NCBI GenBank assembly: GCA_963812015.1
Contig: CAWETI010000002.1
Span: 1,568,001-1,632,000 of the forward strand
Reading direction: 5' to 3'
From: an uncultured delta proteobacterium
Lineage (GTDB): Bacteria > Desulfobacterota > Desulfobaccia > Desulfobaccales > 0-14-0-80-60-11
Length of the DNA stretch: 64,000 bases
Below are positions 39,456 through 57,454 of this stretch, piece by piece. The position numbers and the translations under genes are program-made. The notes below the pieces were generated by a model. It was not told the origin of the DNA and ran no database searches. It worked only from the letters and a program-made list of their open reading frames with translations. Positions within the stretch are counted from its first letter, which is position 1; every line of letters begins with the position of its first letter.

Positions 39456-39920
39456 CTCATTCCCCCCTTTTTCCGGTGCCAGTTTTCCTCCCTTCCGTAA
39501 TTTTGCTGCAGGAACTTCTTCTCCCCCAAGAAGAAGCCAGATAAATTAAGAACACCAGCAGATTCTTTAACCCCAATACGTTATGTCAGAGGGAAGTAAG
39601 GTTGTCAATTAAAATTTACCGAGAGAATAAATTTCAAGAAACAGGGGAAATAAGATCAACAACGGGTCATGAGGTCGGGAAATCATCACGCCAAAAATGG
39701 TGATCTGATCCAGATGTAGTGGTTTCTTAGTTGGTTAAAAAGTCTCCCATTATAGCTGCGAGCCTCATGACGCCTTAATTCTGGTTCTAAGAGGCGGTTG
39801 GTACCAGGGTTTCTGGCCTGGGCACGCCCGCCTCTCTCCGGCCTGGCGGGCTGCGCCCAGACATCCACCATCCTCATAGACGATGGCGCCAATTTTAAAC
39901 GACACGAACAACTGGAAATG

Positions 39921-40442
39921 GTGCCGGAGCCATCCGGGTGGACAACGGCCCAGAGTTTATCTCCAAGGAAGTAGACCTGTGGGCCTATGCCCATGGGGTG
40001 GTCCTGGACTTTTCCCGGCCGGGGAAGCCCACGGACAACGCCTTCATCGAATCGTTTAACAGCCGGTTTCGGCAAGAATGCTTGAATGAACACTGGTTTT
40101 TGAGCCTGGAGGATGCTACAGAGAAGATCGAAGCTTGGCGGGGCCACTATAATGAGCTGCGGCCCCACAGCAGTCTGGGTTATCAATCGCCGATGGAGTA
40201 TCTCTCGGGGGCGCTGCCCCCGAACCCCCGGAGTTTAACGCTTTTAGAAGCTCCGGATGGGCAGGAAAAGCAAGGGCAGGGGCTCAGCCCTGCCCATCCG
40301 TCTGCTTCCCCACCAGGCGCTCAGGTTGCTCTCCAGCAGAGCCTTATCCTCCAGGTGGGTGGACAGAATATACCATGAACCCATAAATGGAAAAAAGCCG
40401 AATTTTCTCACTCAAAATGGTCCAAAAAAGGGGGCAGCTTCA
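39921..40442 (+). mobile_element. Truncated IS3-family element (OrfB integrase-core C-terminus plus right inverted repeat)
   Basis: VDNGPEFISK, SRPGKPTDNAFIESFNSRFRQECLNEHWF, YN..RPHSSLG; ends GGGGGCAGCTTCA; 5' part absent. Confidence 0.9.
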
Positions 40443-40585
40443 ATTTGGCCCACGCGGACCACACTCATGGTTGCTCAATTTGAGGATTCTGAGGGGGTCT
40501 GTGTGGGCCATAGTGTGGGCGAAACGTGGAAAGGCACCCAAAACAAAAGGCGTAACCCTTTGAGGTTACGCCAATTTTAATCTAA

Positions 40586-42469: not shown

Positions 42470-43465
42470 ATGGGAAGACCTTGGGGCAGGCTTTATAGCG
42501 GCATGCGAAATCATCGCAAGATCGTGGCCCTATCGCGACGGCACCCTACCCATTGGCGCGTGGTCTACACCCTTCTTGAAATGAGCTTCGAGACCTGGGA
42601 TGGAGGTAGGATTCTGGCGGCGCCCGGCATTCCTTACACTCTTGCGGAACTGGCCGAGGAAGTCAGACTTTCCCCCAAAAAGCTCCTACCGATTTTAAAA
42701 ACGATGGATGAACTCTCCCTAGTGAAACTGGAAACGGAATGTGCCAATTCTGATCTTAAAAACGCGAAAAAAATGACAATTTTTCTTCATTTTGAAAGTT
42801 GGAATAGAAGGCAATTTGAATCGGATTTGAGTACGAATCGCACCCAAAAACACAGGGCGAAATCAAAAGAATCAGATACTTACAGCAGCATGGGAACGGC
42901 TGGGGAACGGCCACCGGAACGGCAAAGGAACGGTCACGGGAACGGACCAGAGACAGAGACAGAGACAGAGACAGAGACAGAGACAGATATTAACCCCCCT
43001 ACCCCCTTACCAGGGGGTGGCGGGAAGGCTCCTCCTGCGGAAGGCGAAAAGCCAAGGCGGCAGACCAAACGCCAGAAGGCCTTGGCCAATCCATACTCGC
43101 CAGACTTCGAGCGGTTCTATAAGGCCTACCCCAACAAGAAGGGTGGTAAGGACGAGGCCTGGAGACTCTGGCAGGAGCGGGCCGAGGTCGGCAAATTGCC
43201 TTCCATCGACGATATCATGGCCTCCATCGAAGCGCTTATTCCGGGATGGGCCCAGGACAGTAATAAATTCGCCCCTATGATCACCACCTTCATTAATCAG
43301 GGCCGCTGGACTGATGCGGATGCCCTGATTTCCAGGGATGACCCGCAAAACAAGACCGATCCGAACTGCCCTGACTGCCATGGCAGGGGCCTAGTAGAAG
43401 CGGTAGATGACGACGGTGATACAGGCCAGAGAACCTGCCGTTGCAGAGGAGAAAAGCATGACTAA
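42470..43465 (+). CDS. Phage-type replication initiator with C-terminal zinc finger
   Basis: Replisome-organiser-like N-terminus, (ET)6 linker, FERFYKAYP.K..K.EA...W, TTFINQGRW, CPDC..CRC; overlaps dnaB. Confidence 0.8.
   Translation: MGRPWGRLYSGMRNHRKIVALSRRHPTHWRVVYTLLEMSFETWDGGRILAAPGIPYTLAELAEEVRLSPKKLLPILKTMDELSLVKLETECANSDLKNAKKMTIFLHFESWNRRQFESDLSTNRTQKHRAKSKESDTYSSMGTAGERPPERQRNGHGNGPETETETETETETDINPPTPLPGGGGKAPPAEGEKPRRQTKRQKALANPYSPDFERFYKAYPNKKGGKDEAWRLWQERAEVGKLPSIDDIMASIEALIPGWAQDSNKFAPMITTFINQGRWTDADALISRDDPQNKTDPNCPDCHGRGLVEAVDDDGDTGQRTCRCRGEKHD
42893..42985 (+). repeat. Five GGAACGG iteron-like repeats followed by (GAGACA)6
   Basis: GGAACGG at 42893, 42904, 42916, 42927, 42939; hexamer run 42950-42985. 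Confidence 0.85.
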
Positions 43466-48367: not shown

Positions 48368-49738
48368 ATGAGTTTGTTAAACGAGCATCAAAGGCAGAGA
48401 GCATTAGAAGTAATGCGGGAATTCCTATCGGCACCTGCCGGGGCAGACGGACAGACCCCGGTTCAGGCTGGAGATGCATGCGACCATGAACGGATTCGAC
48501 TTATTGAACAAGAAATAAATCCGCTCCTTTCCGGCTACCTTGAAGGGACAATTCCCTTGGCCGATTTCAAGTCTAAAGTGGACAGCATAAACAAGCGTAA
48601 TAGTGGCCTATGGGGTTTCAAGGGCATCAAGGGCCAGATGTTCTTCAACATGGTGGTCAATGTGACCGACAATCCCGGGGAATGCGATCAGGAACTCAAG
48701 GCGGCAATAGCAGTTCCGTCCAGCGACCAGATAGGCGCAAGTCGCTTGAAAACCTTTACCAGCTATGTAAAGCGCCTGGGAGAACAGTGGGTAGAGGCTG
48801 GCCACACCGGGCACGGCATGCCCAAAGTGGGGAGCATTCCGTTCTTTGTCTCATATTTCTGGCAGATTCAGGAACGGGAGACTTGGCCTGTTTATTACAC
48901 CAACAGCGTGCAGATGATGACCGACCTCAATCTCTGGCAACCTTCGGGCGAACTGGCCGAGGATTACATAAACTTCAAGCATCTCCACGAAGAGCTTGCC
49001 GATCTCTTTACGCGAGAGAGCGGCCAGAGATTCGACCTCTACCGGGTGGAACATGTCTTCTGGCACCGCGGCGGCAACCCGTATGCCGGTGGCCCCAGAC
49101 CACCAGTTGGCCCAACACCTCCACCAATTCCCCTGGTCGGCGTGGATGTCCTGCCCGAAAGCTACGTGCCGCCCATCATCGCCATCCTTCCTCGCGTGGC
49201 CTTGAATGAACCTACCATGATTGAAACAGCCCGAAATTCTGGAACTTCCCTGGAACGCGCCTTCGAGAAATACATCAATTCGGCTTTTACTATATTGGGC
49301 TACAAAGCAGAACTCCTTGGAATGGGGAGGGGGCGGGTGCCGGATGGCTTAGCTCTGGCCCACGATGAGAACTATGCTATTCTTTGGGACGCTAAGATTA
49401 GGGCAAACGGATACAGCATGGGAACCGACGACCGTACCATACGTGAGTATATTACTACCCAAAGCCGGGAATTGAAGCGTCGACGTTTCATGAGAAACAT
49501 CTATTACCTTATCATTTCCAGCGCCTTCACGGATGATTACGATGATGCCATCCGCTCCATCAAAATGGAGACCGACGTGAACGAAGTTATCCTCATGGAA
49601 GTCGACGCCCTGGTGGCTATGGTGGATGCAAAACTTAGAGCGCCTTTGGATGTAACTTTAGGTCCCGACGGCTTGCAGCGCCTGTATTCACAAAGCGGCA
49701 TCCTCACCTCCGACACGGTGCGGGAGCTTTTGATATAG
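48368..49738 (+). CDS. Putative restriction endonuclease with C-terminal FokI-type cleavage domain
   Basis: FE....AF..LGY....LG.....PDG.....YAILWDAK...GYS; Pro-rich linker to an unassigned N-terminal domain. Confidence 0.7.
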   Translation: MSLLNEHQRQRALEVMREFLSAPAGADGQTPVQAGDACDHERIRLIEQEINPLLSGYLEGTIPLADFKSKVDSINKRNSGLWGFKGIKGQMFFNMVVNVTDNPGECDQELKAAIAVPSSDQIGASRLKTFTSYVKRLGEQWVEAGHTGHGMPKVGSIPFFVSYFWQIQERETWPVYYTNSVQMMTDLNLWQPSGELAEDYINFKHLHEELADLFTRESGQRFDLYRVEHVFWHRGGNPYAGGPRPPVGPTPPPIPLVGVDVLPESYVPPIIAILPRVALNEPTMIETARNSGTSLERAFEKYINSAFTILGYKAELLGMGRGRVPDGLALAHDENYAILWDAKIRANGYSMGTDDRTIREYITTQSRELKRRRFMRNIYYLIISSAFTDDYDDAIRSIKMETDVNEVILMEVDALVAMVDAKLRAPLDVTLGPDGLQRLYSQSGILTSDTVRELLI

Positions 49739-49748
49739 AGGTAGCATC

Positions 49749-52700
49749 GTGACAACGACATTATCCACATCTGTTGAAATCCAGCTTACGACCTATGCCC
49801 AAGAAGTAACGGCCAAGTTTGCCCTCCCCATAGATTTTAACCCTGAGGACCAGCTTAAAACTCCTACCGATACTCTCTTCAAAGGTATCGGTGCTGCGCT
49901 GGATCTTGAAGTCAAGGTGGTGACGGAGGTGCAGACCGATCAACTCGGCCGCCCCGACATGGGTATCGCCGTCAAAGGACTTCTGGCAGGTCACGTGGAG
50001 TTAAAAGCACCCGGCAAAGGCGCTGACCCTGATAAGTTAAAGGGAGATGACAAGAGGCAATGGGAGCGGTTCAAGAACCTTCCTAACCTGATCTACACCG
50101 ACGGCAATGAGTGGGCCTTATACCGCAGTGGCGAGAGGGTAGGCAAAATTGTAAGGCTCTCCGGCGATGTAACCTCCGAAGGCCATGCGGCTATCGGCCT
50201 GGGCGACGCAGAGGCCATCATTGAGATGATGCAAGACTTTCTCCGCTGGGAGCCTATTGTCCCTGCGTCGCCTACAGCGCTGGCCAAGATGCTGGCCCCC
50301 CTCTGCCACCTGCTGCGCGCCGATGTTCTGACCGCCCTCCAAAATCGGGAGTCAAATCTTTCTCTCCTGGCCGCGGATTGGCGCAAGTACCTCTTTCCTG
50401 ACGCCGACGACTTTCAATTCGCCGACGCCTATGCCCAGACGCTCACCTACGCATTGCTCCTGGCTCGCCTCTCCGGCCCGGGCGAGGGCCTCTCCATCAC
50501 CCAAGCCGCGGCCGCGATCCGTACCGGCCATCGCCTGTTGGCCGACGCCCTCGGCATCCTGGGCGACCCCAAGGCCCGGGAAGAAATTGAGACCCCGGTG
50601 TCGGTGCTGGAACGGGTTATCGGCGCGGTAGACCCCGTGGCTCTCACCCGCAAGGCCAAAGGCGACCCCTGGCTCTATTTCTATGAGGACTTCCTGGCCG
50701 CGTATGACCCGAAAATGCGCAAGGACCGGGGAGTGTACTACACCCCGGTGGAGGTGGTCCAGGCCCAGGTGCGCCTGGTGGCCCAGTTGCTGGAGGGGCG
50801 CTTTGACGCCGACTTTTCCTTTGTGAACGAGAAGGTCATCACCCTGGACCCCGGCGCCGGCACCGGCACTTATATCCTCGCCGCCCTGCAACATGGCCTG
50901 CACCAGGTTGAGCAGGAAAAAGGCCCCGGCATGCGAGCTGTTTTTGCCGGCCAGGCCGCCAAAAATCTCCACGCCTTCGAGCTCTTGGTGGGCCCCTATG
51001 CCGTGGCCCATCTGCGGCTCACCCAGCAAATCCTGGCCGAGGGGGGCCAGATGCCGGCGGACGGCGTCCACGTCTATCTCACGGACACTCTGGAATCCCC
51101 CCACCAGCCGCCGCCCGCGTATCCGATGCTCTATAAGGAATTGGGAGAGGAATACAAACGGGCCCAGCGGGTCAAGGCCGACGTTCCGGTTCTGGTCGTT
51201 CTTGGCAATCCGCCCTACGACCGCCAGCAGATCGAGGCGGCGGAGGCGGGGATGGTGCGGCGCAAGGGCGGCTGGGTGCGCTACGGCGAAGGCGGGAAAG
51301 AAGGCGAGAGCATTTTCAAGAGCTTCCTCAAACCCTTGGAGGCCCTTGGCTGGGGGGTGCACGCCAAGAACCTTTACAATGATTACGTCTATTTCTGGCG
51401 CTGGGCCTTGTGGAAGGTCTTTGAGAATAAGGGCGGCCCCGGAATCGTCAGCTTCATCACCGCCTCCTCCTACCTCCGGGGGCCAGGCTTCGCCGGTATG
51501 CGCCGGGTGATGCGGGAGACCTTTGACGAATTATGGATCATAGACCTCGAGGGCGGCCAGGGGGCGCGGCAAAGCGAAAACGTCTTCGCCATCCAGACCC
51601 CCGTTGCCATCGCCGTGGGTGTGCGCTATGGCGAGCCCCAGCCGGAAACCCCGGCTGCGGTGTACTACACCCGCCTCAGTGGCACGGAGAAGGAAAAGCT
51701 CAAGACCTTGGAGCAGGTGACTTGCTTTGCAGACCTGCCCTGGCGGCCTTGCCTTTCCGGCTGGATCGACCTTTTCCTGCCCACCAGCGACAAGCCCTAC
51801 TGGAATTGGCCGATACTGACCGACCTCTTTCCCTGGCAGGAAAACGGCGTTCAGTTCAAGCGCAACTGGCCTATTGGCGAGACTCCAGAAGTTCTACGAG
51901 GGCGCTGGAACGCGTTTTTAAAAGAACCTCCCGAAAAGAGAGGTGTATTATTGCGCGAAACCGGGGCCCGCAACACTGCGAAAGCCTTTACTGACCCCAT
52001 GACGGGAAAGCAATTATCCTCGTTGAGCAAACTGAAACTTGGAGACCCTGTGGTGGAGCCGGTTCGATACGCCTACCGAAGTTTTGACAGGCATTGGGCT
52101 TTGCTGGACATTCGCCTCTGCGACCGCCCCAGACCGAACCTGTTGAAAGCTCACAGCAACCACCAGGTCTACCTTACCAGCCTACTCACCGAGGTTTTGG
52201 GCGACGGGCCGGCAGCTGTAGCAACAGCACATATACCGGATTTGCACCATTTTCGAGGTTCATTCGGCGGCGCCCATGTCATTCCCCTCTGGCGGGACGC
52301 TGGGGCCACGGAGCCCAATCTCACCGCCGGAGTGCCGGAGGCCATGGCCCAGGCTTACGGCCGGGCCGTCTCGGCGGAAGACCTTTTCGCTTATTGCTAT
52401 GCAGTCCTGGCTTCGCCGGACTACATGCGCCGCTTCTGGGACGAACTGACCATCCCCGGCCCTCGCCTCCCCCTTACCCGGGACGCGGCCTTGTTCGCCC
52501 GCACCGCTGACCTGGGCCGCCGCTTGCTGTGGCTGCACACCTATGGCGACCGCTTCGTGCCACCGGGACACAAGCCCGGCAGAATTTCTCCGGGAACAGC
52601 GAAGTGCCTGAAAGGGACTCCAGCCGTCCCTGAGAAGTATCCCGAATACTCTTCCTATGATCTGGCCGGGCAGCAGTTGCATGTGGGGGAGGGTGTTTTT

Positions 52701-53036
52701 GGCCCGGTGAGCCAAGAGGTGTGGAAATTCAGCCTCTCCGGCTTCCAGGTGGTCCAGCATTGGTTGGCTTCCCGGATGAGAAAAGGGGCTGGCAAAAAGT
52801 CTTCTCCCCTGGATAAGATTCGGCCTGCTGCCTGGCACTTCGACGAGGAACTGCTGGACCTATTGTGGGTATTGGAACACACCGTGGACCTGTGGCCCTC
52901 TTTGGCCCAAATCCTCAATGACATTTTAGCCAGCGATCTGTTCACCGCCCAAGAATTCCCCGGGCCCAAGCCCGAAGAACGGGCGGCCAAAGGACATCTG
53001 CCGCTCCTGAGCGCCATTGCTTCAGATGAAACCTAA
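49749..53036 (+). CDS. Single-chain R-M enzyme: PD-(D/E)XK nuclease + N6-adenine MTase + Type ISP-like specificity domain, no helicase
   Basis: RPD..HVELK, GVYYTP, LDPGAGTG, GNPPY, YRSFD, ...GFQVV.HWL..R. Confidence 0.9.
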   Translation: MTTTLSTSVEIQLTTYAQEVTAKFALPIDFNPEDQLKTPTDTLFKGIGAALDLEVKVVTEVQTDQLGRPDMGIAVKGLLAGHVELKAPGKGADPDKLKGDDKRQWERFKNLPNLIYTDGNEWALYRSGERVGKIVRLSGDVTSEGHAAIGLGDAEAIIEMMQDFLRWEPIVPASPTALAKMLAPLCHLLRADVLTALQNRESNLSLLAADWRKYLFPDADDFQFADAYAQTLTYALLLARLSGPGEGLSITQAAAAIRTGHRLLADALGILGDPKAREEIETPVSVLERVIGAVDPVALTRKAKGDPWLYFYEDFLAAYDPKMRKDRGVYYTPVEVVQAQVRLVAQLLEGRFDADFSFVNEKVITLDPGAGTGTYILAALQHGLHQVEQEKGPGMRAVFAGQAAKNLHAFELLVGPYAVAHLRLTQQILAEGGQMPADGVHVYLTDTLESPHQPPPAYPMLYKELGEEYKRAQRVKADVPVLVVLGNPPYDRQQIEAAEAGMVRRKGGWVRYGEGGKEGESIFKSFLKPLEALGWGVHAKNLYNDYVYFWRWALWKVFENKGGPGIVSFITASSYLRGPGFAGMRRVMRETFDELWIIDLEGGQGARQSENVFAIQTPVAIAVGVRYGEPQPETPAAVYYTRLSGTEKEKLKTLEQVTCFADLPWRPCLSGWIDLFLPTSDKPYWNWPILTDLFPWQENGVQFKRNWPIGETPEVLRGRWNAFLKEPPEKRGVLLRETGARNTAKAFTDPMTGKQLSSLSKLKLGDPVVEPVRYAYRSFDRHWALLDIRLCDRPRPNLLKAHSNHQVYLTSLLTEVLGDGPAAVATAHIPDLHHFRGSFGGAHVIPLWRDAGATEPNLTAGVPEAMAQAYGRAVSAEDLFAYCYAVLASPDYMRRFWDELTIPGPRLPLTRDAALFARTADLGRRLLWLHTYGDRFVPPGHKPGRISPGTAKCLKGTPAVPEKYPEYSSYDLAGQQLHVGEGVFGPVSQEVWKFSLSGFQVVQHWLASRMRKGAGKKSSPLDKIRPAAWHFDEELLDLLWVLEHTVDLWPSLAQILNDILASDLFTAQEFPGPKPEERAAKGHLPLLSAIASDET

Positions 53037-53280
53037 GTACATGAGAATGATGGATGGCAACAGGCTCATAAACGAGTCGGCCTACTGGCAGAACATCCCG
53101 GCCAGGGTGTGGGGCTACTGCATCGGCGGCTATCAAGTGATCAAAAAGTGGCTCAGCTACCGGGAACGCAATCTCCTGGGCCAGCCCCTTATCCGTGAAG
53201 AAGCCCGGGAATTCACAGGCATGGGGCGGCGCTTGGCTGCCATTGTCCTGATAGAGCTGGCCTTGAATATAAGCTACTGA
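53017..53280 (+). pseudogene. Orphan C-terminal fragment of a second Type ISP-like specificity domain
   Basis: NIPARVWGYCIGGYQVIKKWLSYRE parallels VSQEVWKFSLSGFQVVQHWLASR of the upstream gene. Confidence 0.75.
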
Positions 53281-53619
53281 TGATTAAGGAATCGGGCTCT
53301 CAATGGTCAAACTTCAAGAAAGAATGATTATTGCCGATCTATATGAATCAGATGGCGCGGTTCTTTTCCAACCATAGTGTCATCAGAAAAAAAATGGAAA
53401 AAAACATAAATTCGTGATATTAAGAATTCCTTAAGGGGAAATATAGGCAAAAATGCCTATTGAAAAACCAATCTTAAGTCCATAATTATTTATCAAGATC
53501 CCTTGAGAAGGGGCGAAGAGGGACCTCTGCCTGGCGTGCAGAATTGAACCTCGCATTTTGACTCTTCGTGTTGCAGGGAACCTCAAAGAGTCTCCACAAA
53601 AATGAAAGGGGCGGCGAGG

Positions 53620-53847
53620 ATGGCGAGAGTGAGAGAATCGCGTGTTTACGAACTTGAGGTGAAAGGAAGAGGGATTGTCCCTGAGTCAAATCACTTAACC
53701 CAGATGATCAAAGAGATTGAGTCCGATCGGTTCATGGCCTGGGGTAAGGATTTTTTCCACAAACGAACTTTCTTTAAAAAGTATCTTACTGGCGTCGACA
53801 AATACAGTCTCACGGCCACAGACCCGTGGGCGCTCACCAAAGGCTGA
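53620..53847 (+). CDS. Small hypothetical protein (75 aa)
   Basis: G-rich RBS, followed by a strong hairpin; first gene of the AT-rich module. Confidence 0.6.
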   Translation: MARVRESRVYELEVKGRGIVPESNHLTQMIKEIESDRFMAWGKDFFHKRTFFKKYLTGVDKYSLTATDPWALTKG

Positions 53848-53890
53848 ATAAGTTTTTGCGACCTGCTATCGTATCTCCCTAATTCCAGGG

Positions 53891-53927
53891 AAAAAGAACA
53901 GGAACCATGGGGTTCCTTTTCTTTTTT
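53891..53927 (+). terminator. Hairpin/terminator between the small ORF and the large gene
   Basis: AAAAAGAA-c-AGGAACC-atgg-GGTTCCT-t-TTCTTTTT. Confidence 0.7.
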
Positions 53928-53940
53928 AGGGTGCTAAAGA

Positions 53941-56245
53941 ATGCAGCAAAAAATTGGCAAAGAGGGAATTAAGGTTACCTTTATTCAAACCCTGCCAGGG
54001 ATGGAGATCCAGGTGGCTCACCAGCTGGTACAGGCTTGCCGGGCCGCGGGGGTCAATCGTTATGCCTTTTTCAAGGCCCTTGGGGGATGTGACATTATTA
54101 TGGTCTATCCCTCAAACTACTTCGGCTTTCAGCTCACTAAGTATGGAATTATCTCCGGCATTTTGAAATACAACACCTTTCTATGTTTTCCTTACCGCTG
54201 GACCGATTCCCCAGATAGGCCAACTGATGCCATAAAGTTTCTGAACCAATCTACATTCGCTGGCTTCAGCCTCTTGAAAATGAATTCTGAAGGGGAGACC
54301 AGTTTCCAAAATATTGAAGAACACTTCTTTTCTTTTTTAAATCGCAGACACCCGATAGATTCTCTTACCTTGGGTACCTTAGGGTGGAACGAACTCGTCC
54401 TTATATTAACCGAGGAAAGCCTGGGGCAGATCATAGAGGACCTCATCAGGTTGAGCTATGAGGCGTCTCTCAATCCTGAGACCTCTTATCCCTTGATCAA
54501 GACTTTTTCTTACTTGGCCATTAACTATGATCAGCTTTTTGGACATGGATGGAGCGCCAAAATAGCTAAAATGGTAAGCCCCAAAGAATTCGAGGACTTT
54601 TTCAAAAAATCTCTAAAAGAGCAAAAGTTTGGCGAATTGATTCGTGAGGAATCAGAGGCCCACGCTATGCATCACCACCCCCCCCGGTCAGCCACACCAA
54701 ACTATAAAGGATTACTGGCGAAATAAAAAATTTCAGTGTTTAGATACCTTAGGGGAGCAAGATATCCAGGTTATCCCTCCTCAACGATATAGAAAGTCGT
54801 GGGGAGATTTTCTGTCCGATATTCTCATCTTTCGGTGGAAATTCCGCAATCTTATTCACTCGACCAGCACCATGTTGAACTATGAACTGGGTGATTACGC
54901 CAAACTTTCAGGAAAAACTGGACTGAAATCCGCTCTTGGCCACCGGTTGGACCTGGAAATTTTCTCCAGATCTGATTACCCATACGAGGACTTGGAAATA
55001 TTTTTTGGGGAAAAGGCTGCCCCAATGCTGGCGGCCCAACTCTTCGCCCTTAATAGCATGAGTCAAAACCCAACGAGCGGTCAAGTATTTCGGGATATGC
55101 GCTACTACCCCAAGATAATTATGAATAGAGGATACAAGCGCTATAATAAATTCAATGCTCCGGATGAACTCATGGCCTTCAAATTTGCCGAGGCGTTAAG
55201 TCATGGGTTGGAACTGCGATCTTATGGAACTTACGGCCATGTGGAAAAACCATATGGCCGGATTGCTAAGCTCAAGGGAGGGGTACAAAGGGCTCTCTTG
55301 GCAATGGAATACCTGCCTTCCAGAATTTTAGATCGGGCCTGTCCCCAACCCTGGTTCGGTTTCATCAATGCCTATGAAGACCCAAAGTTTGCCCAAATAC
55401 AAGAAGTTATTTATGTCCCCCTCGAAGCTCTCTGGACACCCGAGAACTGGTGGGCGCTGTTTCATGAGGTCGCGCATATAATCGTTGACCGGAGTCCTAA
55501 ACTATTATCTGAAACCGATCAGGTGATCCAGAATTTTCTGACTTATAAAGAGAATTACGGCGCTTGGATGAGGTTTTTTAATGAACTGGCGGCGGAGGTC
55601 ATCGGTTTTGAGTTGGGGTTTTTCGGGGATTTGGATCTGTTCATTAAGACGCTCTGGCCATATTTGAAAAAAATTGAATTGACCCTTGGGGACTATTCAA
55701 GCCTGGAAGTCTATTTGTTCCGCACCTTTTGTGTAGAAATCTGGCACAAATGTTTTGGGGCGGTAATGGAAAGACAGGGAAGCCCAAAGGTCACCATTGA
55801 TAATTACCGCGATGATGACTTTTTATATAAAAGTCTCATAAATCATATTAGAAAGGTGGAAGGCCTTATCGGCAAATTAGAAAAGAGAAATCTTGCCATT
55901 GCGAGTTTCATGGGTATTTTCAAAGAAATATTTCCGTTTATCAAAGACTTGTATAGCAAAATTAAAGATATAGAAGAAAACCAGCAGGTAAAAATATTTC
56001 ACCAGAAAGCATGGGTTGAAGATAATAATGTAAAAAATATTACCAATCATTTATTAGAAGGCAAGGTTTACTGGGGTAAGATCGAATATCCAGAAGCTGT
56101 TTTATACAATATCTTAAAGCAAAAAATGAAAATAAGGTCTAAGGAAAAGAAATTTCCTTTTGTCATGGCCATTATCCTTACCTTTTGGAACGCTCAGTTA
56201 AAATGGTTAAAAACTATGCCTCCCACTCACTTTAGAGCTCTCTAA
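53941..56245 (+). pseudogene. Frameshift-split gene (53941-54726 and 54644-56245): repeated AsnC/ferredoxin-like domains plus C-terminal HExxH domain
   Basis: Overlapping +1 frames; repeated units FIQTLPG..ALGGCDI, TLGWNEL, CITTPPG..TLGEQDI; FHEVAH..ELAAE. Confidence 0.6.
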
Positions 56246-56263
56246 GGACTTCTTTTCATTCCG

Positions 56264-57454
56264 ATGGAAGAAAAACCTCCCATACTAAAACTGATTCAAC
56301 TCTTAATTGATTCTCCGGTTCAGGTTCTCCCTCCGGAACACCAGGCCAAGTTTTCTGGCAAATTGAGTTCATATGCGCATAAATCTTCAGAGGCAGAAAA
56401 ACTTAGGCTCATCACTGAAATGATGGAGTTGTTGTGGCGCGAAGGAAATAGTGCCCAACTTCTCAAATATTTTGCCAATTTTGAGCGTTTTCTACGAGCT
56501 GTTGGTAAGAGAGATCACTTCATTCATCAATTTGAGGTATATCTTTTAGGCTGGTTTATTATCCATGCCTTGGAAATTAGGGGATATCACATCGGGGAAT
56601 TCACGTCCTTGAGTTCTGAGCTTTTCCTTCAAACCTGGCTGATGACCGCAATGGGGCACGATTTGGGCCTGCCGTTACAAGAAGAACCGGCAATCATAAA
56701 GGTTCTTAAGGAACTCCACGAAAGTGTGGGGACCCGCACTATTGCGGGGAATTACGCTAAATTGGAAGCGAAACTTTCCCATATAGGAAGTAAGGGGAGG
56801 CAGATCCTGATGAAGGATCTCCTTAGTGGTGAAGGTTCTAAAATTGCTCATCAAATTAGAGCTGGAATTAAGATAACCACTGGTTTCAGCTTAACGCAAA
56901 CAAGGGCCGTGTGGAACGCGCTGGTGAAATCTGGGAAAAACCATGGACTTATCAGCGCTATAATCCTGGGTCGAGACCTTTCCGGCTTTTTTGTCCCCGG
57001 CGGTGATTTCCAAGGGGCAGAAGCTGCTGATGATCCGGAGCTAAAACGTTTCCGGTTACTGCTCTCAGCTATTGCTCTTCACCATCTTAAAGAGGAAGGG
57101 GACTCTGAACACGTGGTGAAAAATATAAGGTTCACCGCAAATCCTTTTGCTTATCTTCTTTATATTGCAGACAATCTTCAGGAGTGGGGCCGGGATATTG
57201 GGGGCTGGGCAAATGTCCCCGAAACCACTTTGACTGATTTTGAATTCAATGATCCCAAATTAACTCTGACTTTCACGCTTTCTCACGATGACTGGGGAAT
57301 AGGTGACGCTGAAAAGAATGTTTTGGCAGAAATTCGCAAGGCTGATCACCGTCTAAAATGGCCACAAAGACCCTACAAAGGCTTATCCATTGAGGCTATA
57401 TATAATAGTAATAGCAAGATAATCAATGCCGAGAAAATTACTGTGGAAATTTAG
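56264..57454 (+). CDS. HD-superfamily metal-dependent phosphohydrolase
   Basis: RDHFIH..GHDLG..NHG.ISA..AIALHH..IADNLQEWGR. Confidence 0.78.
   Translation: MEEKPPILKLIQLLIDSPVQVLPPEHQAKFSGKLSSYAHKSSEAEKLRLITEMMELLWREGNSAQLLKYFANFERFLRAVGKRDHFIHQFEVYLLGWFIIHALEIRGYHIGEFTSLSSELFLQTWLMTAMGHDLGLPLQEEPAIIKVLKELHESVGTRTIAGNYAKLEAKLSHIGSKGRQILMKDLLSGEGSKIAHQIRAGIKITTGFSLTQTRAVWNALVKSGKNHGLISAIILGRDLSGFFVPGGDFQGAEAADDPELKRFRLLLSAIALHHLKEEGDSEHVVKNIRFTANPFAYLLYIADNLQEWGRDIGGWANVPETTLTDFEFNDPKLTLTFTLSHDDWGIGDAEKNVLAEIRKADHRLKWPQRPYKGLSIEAIYNSNSKIINAEKITVEI

Follow-up and report, generated by a model that had tools for sequence, protein, structure and literature searches.

Among described bacterial switches, those closest to the locus reported here pair a sensor metallopeptidase with a small partner that is cleaved, the precedents being CapP/CapH and IrrE/DdrO, and the metal site of CapP is formed by H96, H100 and E129 (excerpts of 10.1101/2022.04.27.489752). 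A related case is Lit (peptidase U49), an HEXXH protease activated by a peptide of 29 residues (excerpt of PMC3014915). Here, we analysed a stretch of 64,000 nucleotides (the window; all positions refer to it) from an uncultured delta proteobacterium of the Desulfobaccales (assembly GCA_963812015.1, contig CAWETI010000002.1, positions 1,568,001 to 1,632,000). It carries a three-gene module at 53443-57454, composed of a small peptide gene, a large gene coding for RAM-type domains fused to an HExxH domain, and a gene for an HD-superfamily phosphohydrolase. This module is rare, conserved and undescribed, it resides in mobile DNA, and it would most likely act as a protease-controlled defence or stress switch. 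We found no description of it in titles and the beginnings of abstracts, and the supplements of large defence or RiPP (ribosomally synthesised and post-translationally modified peptide) catalogues or subscription papers may list it.

The module shares with CapP/CapH, IrrE/DdrO and ImmA/ImmR an HExxH motif with a downstream glutamate, a ligand-sensing domain in the same chain, a small partner gene and a mobile or defence context. However, its peptidase-like domain is C-terminal behind three RAM domains, whereas theirs is N-terminal, before helix-turn-helix (HTH) and GAF domains; in its partner, a short peptide, no HTH is recognised, and its output would be an enzyme gene rather than the de-repression of a promoter. 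Indeed, no conserved HTH gene, as would be expected of the repressor partner of an M78 peptidase, is found beside the module. The likeness to Lit/Gol lies in the HEXXH protease, in an activity that depends in Lit on a short peptide, and in a weak profile and embedding resemblance, but Gol belongs to the capsid protein of a phage and Lit stands alone, while the module encodes its own peptide and an enzyme partner, and its protease is much longer and has RAM domains. In contrast to the RAM domains of Lrp/AsnC and to the dimeric alpha+beta barrels of Cld/HemQ, three copies are present here in one chain, with a peptidase-like fusion and no HTH. The alpha-ketoglutarate (alpha-KG)-dependent HExxH RiPP enzymes ChlH and PflC likewise combine an HExxH protein of zincin-like ancestry with an adjoining short peptide gene; unlike them, the module matches none of their models, lacks a radical SAM enzyme, MNIO or transporter, and has HD, SIR2-like or RelA partners. 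Finally, the HD protein has the H…HD…D ligands and helical fold of the HD/PDEase superfamily (class I phosphodiesterases (PDEs), PPX/GppA, SpoT, the HD domain of Cas3) and falls into no Pfam family. As in the preliminary description, the module could not be matched to a named system: the four open reading frames (ORFs) of the module have no match in Pfam (E<=1), NCBIfam or PADLOC (E<=0.1), and PADLOC matches in the homologues are faint. The module most plausibly works like a sensor-metallopeptidase switch, yet by sequence it falls outside the M78, Lit and alpha-KG-HExxH families and all PADLOC families.

RAM-type repeats and an HExxH…E domain in one protein

The large gene (53941-56245, forward strand, about 767 codons) codes for three RAM-type ferredoxin domains, a helical region and an HExxH…E metallopeptidase-like domain. 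In the assembly, it appears as two overlapping frames (53941-54726 and 54644-56245), which align by tblastn to residues 1-248 and 220-764 of a 765-residue homologue (P0002) at about 68% identity. In the best homologues, the protein is one unsplit chain of 700-777 residues. Besides, a contig from a public sequencing run (X1; 54524-54676, otherwise identical, depth 3.3) has one base fewer at 54650, which yields a continuous frame. On the evidence of this low-depth contig and of the unsplit homologues, the extra base is likely an assembly error, a recent inactivating insertion being what it may be instead. The gene had been described as split; its length stands, but the split is no trait of the family. 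Among the 20 loci with the large gene that we compared, it is broken in five, the window included, and at a different position each time. A programmed frameshift or a two-gene form was rejected because the homologues are single proteins, the four other broken loci are interrupted elsewhere and X1 lacks the extra base. The set of 20 was obtained after removal of duplicates (L007 and L009 with L008, L039 with L033, and similar cases) and leaves aside the 1-kb L017 and the distant L062; within it, L012, L016, L032 and L034 are 64-71% alike and therefore not independent.

The three tandem ferredoxin-like domains (53941-54890, limits approximate) had been proposed to be of AsnC type, and fold comparison agrees. 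The AlphaFold2 model of P0002 (pLDDT 92.8) places three such domains on the N-terminal side, each predicted as a four-stranded alpha/beta sandwich that matches the RAM fold of Lrp/AsnC proteins. At the sequence level, the relationship amounts to a profile match to an Lrp-family chain at E 0.24, with no Pfam match. Three similar units were thus correctly recognised in the preliminary description, but their G..(D/E) motif, thought to end each unit, sits in a mid-domain loop of the model. These G-x-x-D/E loops and a threonine are invariant, or nearly so for the loops, across the RAM domains of 115 full-length homologues, which would fit amino-acid binding at a domain interface, with these as the putative binding residues. 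The homologue family comprises 511 clusters at 50% identity. In one member (P0182, 892 residues), a NACHT/NB-ARC-like ATPase region (E 8e-4, below the cut-off) replaces the RAM domains and is fused to the C-terminal half, an architecture that would be expected of a swappable sensor.

The C-terminal HEVAH…ELAAE motif noticed earlier is indeed present (55463-55477 and 55583-55597, forward strand) and forms a predicted metal site. The H, E and H of HExxH are kept in 115 of 115 full-length homologues and the third-ligand glutamate, which lies on helix 539-562 of the P0002 model, in 114; an acidic residue follows four positions later in all 115. An HExxH motif with a downstream E-x-x-A-E/D helix is typical of hydrolytic gluzincins. 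Assignment to a particular peptidase family is less firm. Of 20 domain members compared with Pfam, four match Peptidase_M78 weakly (best E 0.012) and two M48; no match to Peptidase_M78 (PF06114) exceeds the cut-off in these or in the window proteins. The Lit profile of PADLOC reaches E 0.011 in one of nine large homologues scanned and does not match the window protein, and the ESM Atlas returns U49, M48 and M13 clusters (scores 0.78-0.87) that serve as leads only. Among the weak genome matches of the family profile, HTH-M78-like and Lit-like proteins were recognised by eye. Solved structures gave no significant relative by sequence, and a viral structure library no match at E<=0.001. Stand-alone relatives of the HExxH domain were also seen: a 372-residue protein convergent with a gene for a Piwi-domain protein (prokaryotic Argonaute; L041:2785-6150), and another within a co-oriented operon of unknown genes in a genome of the same family (L058:2519-9348).

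A recurring peptide and exchangeable partner enzymes

The 75-residue ORF announced in the preliminary description lies at 53620-53847 on the forward strand (alternative start at 53602, 81 residues) and is also catalogued as a called protein. Its product is soluble and basic, with no hydrophobic run resembling a signal peptide. An ORF of 58-95 residues flanks the module in 17 of the 20 loci (16 of 19 without the window), upstream and co-oriented in nine and downstream and convergent in eight. The small ORF belongs to a recurring peptide slot and is a real third part of the module; the conserved small partner has no match in Pfam or NCBIfam. Candidates were chosen by eye and then tested by profile. 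Eleven of them form a sequence family, in which a leave-one-out profile ranks each peptide first among the 17-136 small ORFs of its locus in ten cases, the L005 peptide being the one not recovered; moreover, the full profile found a twelfth member, on which it had not been trained, in L034 (E 2e-13 among 2230 small ORFs). The family shares an N-x-x-T-L element, a G-L, an aromatic-x-G and a basic C-terminal P-R-x-x-R-K. Because they have no long hydrophobic run, the peptides are probably cytoplasmic. Between the L012 and L032 peptides, 19 of 28 substitutions fall at third positions, with 13 codons changed synonymously and 12 not, which indicates coding under purifying selection in the one pair tested. 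The peptides of the window, L004, L038, L040 and L057 do not match the profile, and that of the window is tied to the others by position and by a conserved terminator hairpin only.

This hairpin (53893-53926, forward strand, with the structure itself at 53900-53917), U-tailed and similar to an intrinsic terminator, separates the peptide gene from the large gene. The structure noted earlier behind the 75-residue ORF does exist and recurs, but taken alone it does not exceed chance in the window (5 sites versus 6.1 in shuffled sequences, fold z -1.4). A U-tailed hairpin separates peptide and enzyme genes in seven of the nine loci of the upstream type; five share the same stem, and the stems of the window and L038 carry changes on both sides. 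Such a layout should give much more peptide than enzyme. An Rfam search with the hairpin returned no match at E<=1, and a promoter scan stayed at chance level.

The HD protein of the window (396 residues, 56264-57454, forward strand) starts, as first reported, 19 nucleotides after the stop of the large gene. Its ligands H85, H132-D133, H227, H273 and D303 are kept in 21 of 21 homologues; from the full set originally listed, only the second H of "HH" fell away, as it occurs in 8 of 21. The structural model predicts a helical HD/PDEase fold, with class I PDEs, PPX/GppA HD domains and SpoT/alarmone hydrolases as best matches. An HD homologue stands directly downstream of the large gene in 15 of 20 loci, and the 14 of 19 outside the window bear out the co-occurrence on which the preliminary description had staked its case. 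The HD gene is, however, not the only partner, and the partners are interchangeable. In two loci, L004 (in this same genome) and L038, the large gene is directly preceded by a SIR2-like gene, and the two SIR2-like proteins are homologous (BLASTP E 9e-22); NYD and HG motifs are kept in 10 of 10 SIR2-like partners, and the best NCBIfam matches are to protein deacylases (E 4e-5, far below the cut-off). A RelA/SpoT gene (Pfam E 5e-20) follows the large gene in L037, and L016 is cut by an insertion and a contig end. In the tree, the HD loci group in a single clade (FastTree support 1.0), and the two SIR2 loci and the RelA locus sit on other branches. Most deep branches are without a locus, and therefore further partners may exist. 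Across 401 genomes, all three strong HD matches adjoin a large gene; in the wider HD group, six weaker matches (in six of the nine genomes with a match) occur without one. Some distant HD homologues (P0042-P0044) additionally carry a fused CDC48 N-terminal domain (PF02359).

Possible modes of action

The best reading of the module, if still a tentative one, is that a ligand-gated metallopeptidase cuts an abundant peptide and so frees a nucleotide-consuming effector, in the manner of CapP and IrrE. Its constant core would be formed by three RAM-type ligand-binding domains, followed in the same chain by an IrrE/Lit-like zinc metallopeptidase, together with a cytoplasmic peptide of 60-80 residues that would be made in excess, either from its own gene followed by a terminator or by separate transcription. 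The variable part would be a nucleotide-consuming enzyme, namely the HD phosphohydrolase here and a SIR2-like or RelA/SpoT protein elsewhere. The peptide would keep the partner enzyme inactive until the RAM domains read a signal, possibly an amino acid or a peptide end, and switch on the peptidase; cleavage of the peptide would then free the enzyme to deplete or alter a nucleotide pool, with arrest of the cell as the outcome. If true, defence effectors would here be controlled by a metabolite-gated protease switch, with a separately encoded peptide as inhibitor. Intact natural loci (e.g. L010, L011) make the proposal directly testable, and the interruption in the window is itself most likely an assembly error.

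Several observations speak against peptide cleavage as the release step of a defence effector. The metal, the proteolysis, the ligand, the binding partners, the substrate of the effector and the anti-phage role are all things that we infer. The paralog of this genome (L004) is the single homologue without the third-ligand glutamate, having an N instead, all family matches of the HExxH domain are weak, and in whole-chain structure searches the RAM domains filled every list, leaving the zincin fold of the HExxH domain putative. Compared with 16 other candidates, the window peptide resembles none (shuffle p 0.06-0.95), no peptide is recognised in L016, L036 and L037 (3 of 20 loci), and in one close pair the peptide is more conserved than the enzymes, unlike a fast-evolving part of an arms race. 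The RelA partner is known from a single locus and L040 has no recognised partner enzyme. Finally, no copy of the module was found in 50,697 phage records, 72,556 plasmids or a viral contig scan, and a credible PADLOC-type neighbour within 5 kb is missing from 9 of 16 loci, a figure that comes with no background rate.

A broader proposal, which we consider doubtful, is that the module represents a new class of peptide-centred immune or signalling systems, in which a RAM-repeat HExxH scaffold would process or modify a genome-encoded peptide on a metabolite cue and thereby drive any one of several nucleotide enzymes (HD, SIR2, RelA) as a plug-in; further partners would likely be held by the hundreds of uncharted family branches. 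The module defines an unannotated family that associates amino-acid-sensor-type domains and a peptidase-like domain with a dedicated peptide and exchangeable nucleotide enzymes, an architecture that we did not find described.

An intracellular RiPP-like pathway is unlikely. Here, the peptide would be a precursor bound by the ferredoxin repeats, the HExxH domain would cleave or oxidise it, as alpha-KG-dependent HExxH enzymes do, and the HD, SIR2-like or nucleotidyltransferase partner would tailor it. The precursor-sized ORF with its terminator ahead of the enzymes in seven of nine loci, the linear motifs along the peptide and the deacylase matches of the SIR2-like partner would all suit such a pathway. 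The fold of HEXXH RiPP enzymes is zincin-like, and they are capable of both oxidation and hydrolysis (excerpt of PMC12636437); anti-phage lanthipeptides and an ADP-ribosylated RiPP are reported as well. Yet no RiPP enzyme model of NCBIfam or Pfam matches, the HExxH RiPP models of NCBIfam in particular giving nothing at E<=0.05 for 12 large homologues or for the window proteins. Moreover, no radical SAM enzyme, transporter or second protease is conserved beside the module, the residues conserved in the peptide, chiefly N, G, P, R and K, are scattered from end to end with no clear division into leader and core, and the third-ligand helix is of the hydrolytic gluzincin type.

Equally improbable is a scheme in which the peptide regulates the protease, as an inhibitor in trans or a Gol-like cofactor, and the active protease cleaves the partner to activate it, or else a host protein as Lit cuts EF-Tu. 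Peptide and large gene do stay paired as the partner changes, L040 consists of a large gene and a small ORF without a partner, and the Lit resemblance, weak as it is, points the same way. However, the peptides of the SIR2 loci are unlike the profile of the HD loci, which would fit partner-specific binding equally well, and the large proteins of those loci are also distant. Least probable of all is metabolic or stress signalling outside defence, with RAM domains that sense amino acids and a module that tunes alarmone or cyclic-nucleotide pools: RAM domains do bind amino acids (excerpt of PMC2995911), and the HD fold matches, the RelA/SpoT gene of one locus and the nine loci without defence neighbours are compatible with it, but the module is very patchy, AT-rich and in most loci beside restriction-modification (RM) genes, integrases, tRNA genes or insertion sequences (IS), its large gene is broken at differing positions in a quarter of the loci, and HD fold matches fix no substrate.

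Distribution and genomic surroundings

Full-length matches were obtained in five of the 400 other genomes covered in the phylum, in 0 of 82 others of the class and in 2 of 251 in a sample of another class; despite this patchy spread, the present genome has two copies (window and L004). A planctomycete sample of 351 genomes gave no full-strength match and one distant relative of 927 residues (L062:607-3390, E 3e-14), which has no recognised partner or peptide; P0097, P0109 and P0111 are long forms similar to it. L035 proved to be a false match and was rejected. Of 15 other loci scanned, six have PADLOC-type defence genes within 5 kb, and so does the window, hence 7 of 16, a count given without a background rate. 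Those of the six loci comprise AbiEi, GmrSD-like with an ATPase, WYL with DrmD-like, HmaB/C and two type I RM systems, and the count leaves out generic methyltransferase (mad2), GlgB and radical-SAM matches (L032, L033, L034 and one in L038). Most remaining loci are near integrases, tRNA genes, IS or a resolvase. In L008 (6052-13400; also L007 and L009), near-identical partial copies of an oxidoreductase gene, formate dehydrogenase-like by eye, are found on both sides of the module, which suggests either an insertion with duplication or an assembly repeat. The second island of the present genome (L004:3977-19697, G000:C2 at about 668-684 kb) carries the SIR2 version of the module along with tRNA-Thr, HNH-HIT, DUF6946, YLATT, DUF5655 and an integrase.

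In the window, the AT-rich, co-oriented block reported behind two restriction-type genes was recovered in full: GC content is 43.5% over 53443-57454 versus 58.1% for the genome, all genes have the same orientation, and the upstream neighbours are a FokI-cleavage-domain gene (Pfam E 2.5e-6) and a type IIG RM gene (PADLOC E=0), which together with a short Type-ISP-C fragment span 48368-53280 on the forward strand, outside the module. This fragment (53017-53280), a short duplicate of the Type ISP C-terminal specificity domain, stands directly 3' of the type IIG gene. In the surrounding island, genes for PC4, DUF5131 and a regulator occur along with an ORF that looks DnaB-like by eye. The island may be a satellite, as had been suggested, but no integrase was found among the window ORFs examined (28000-64000) and neither island boundaries nor an att pair were found around the module. 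In relatives, only the Fur/ABC genes downstream are retained. The start of the type IIG gene (49729-50930) has an 85% copy on contig C3 (721272-722470) and 47279-48244 a 69% copy at C2:713781-714748; these copies are related elements elsewhere in the genome. On the left side of the island, an IS3-type transposase remnant (39686-40445, by eye) also has a related copy on C3, and a hexamer repeat (42948-42989) codes for an ET run inside a replication-type gene (42470-43465).

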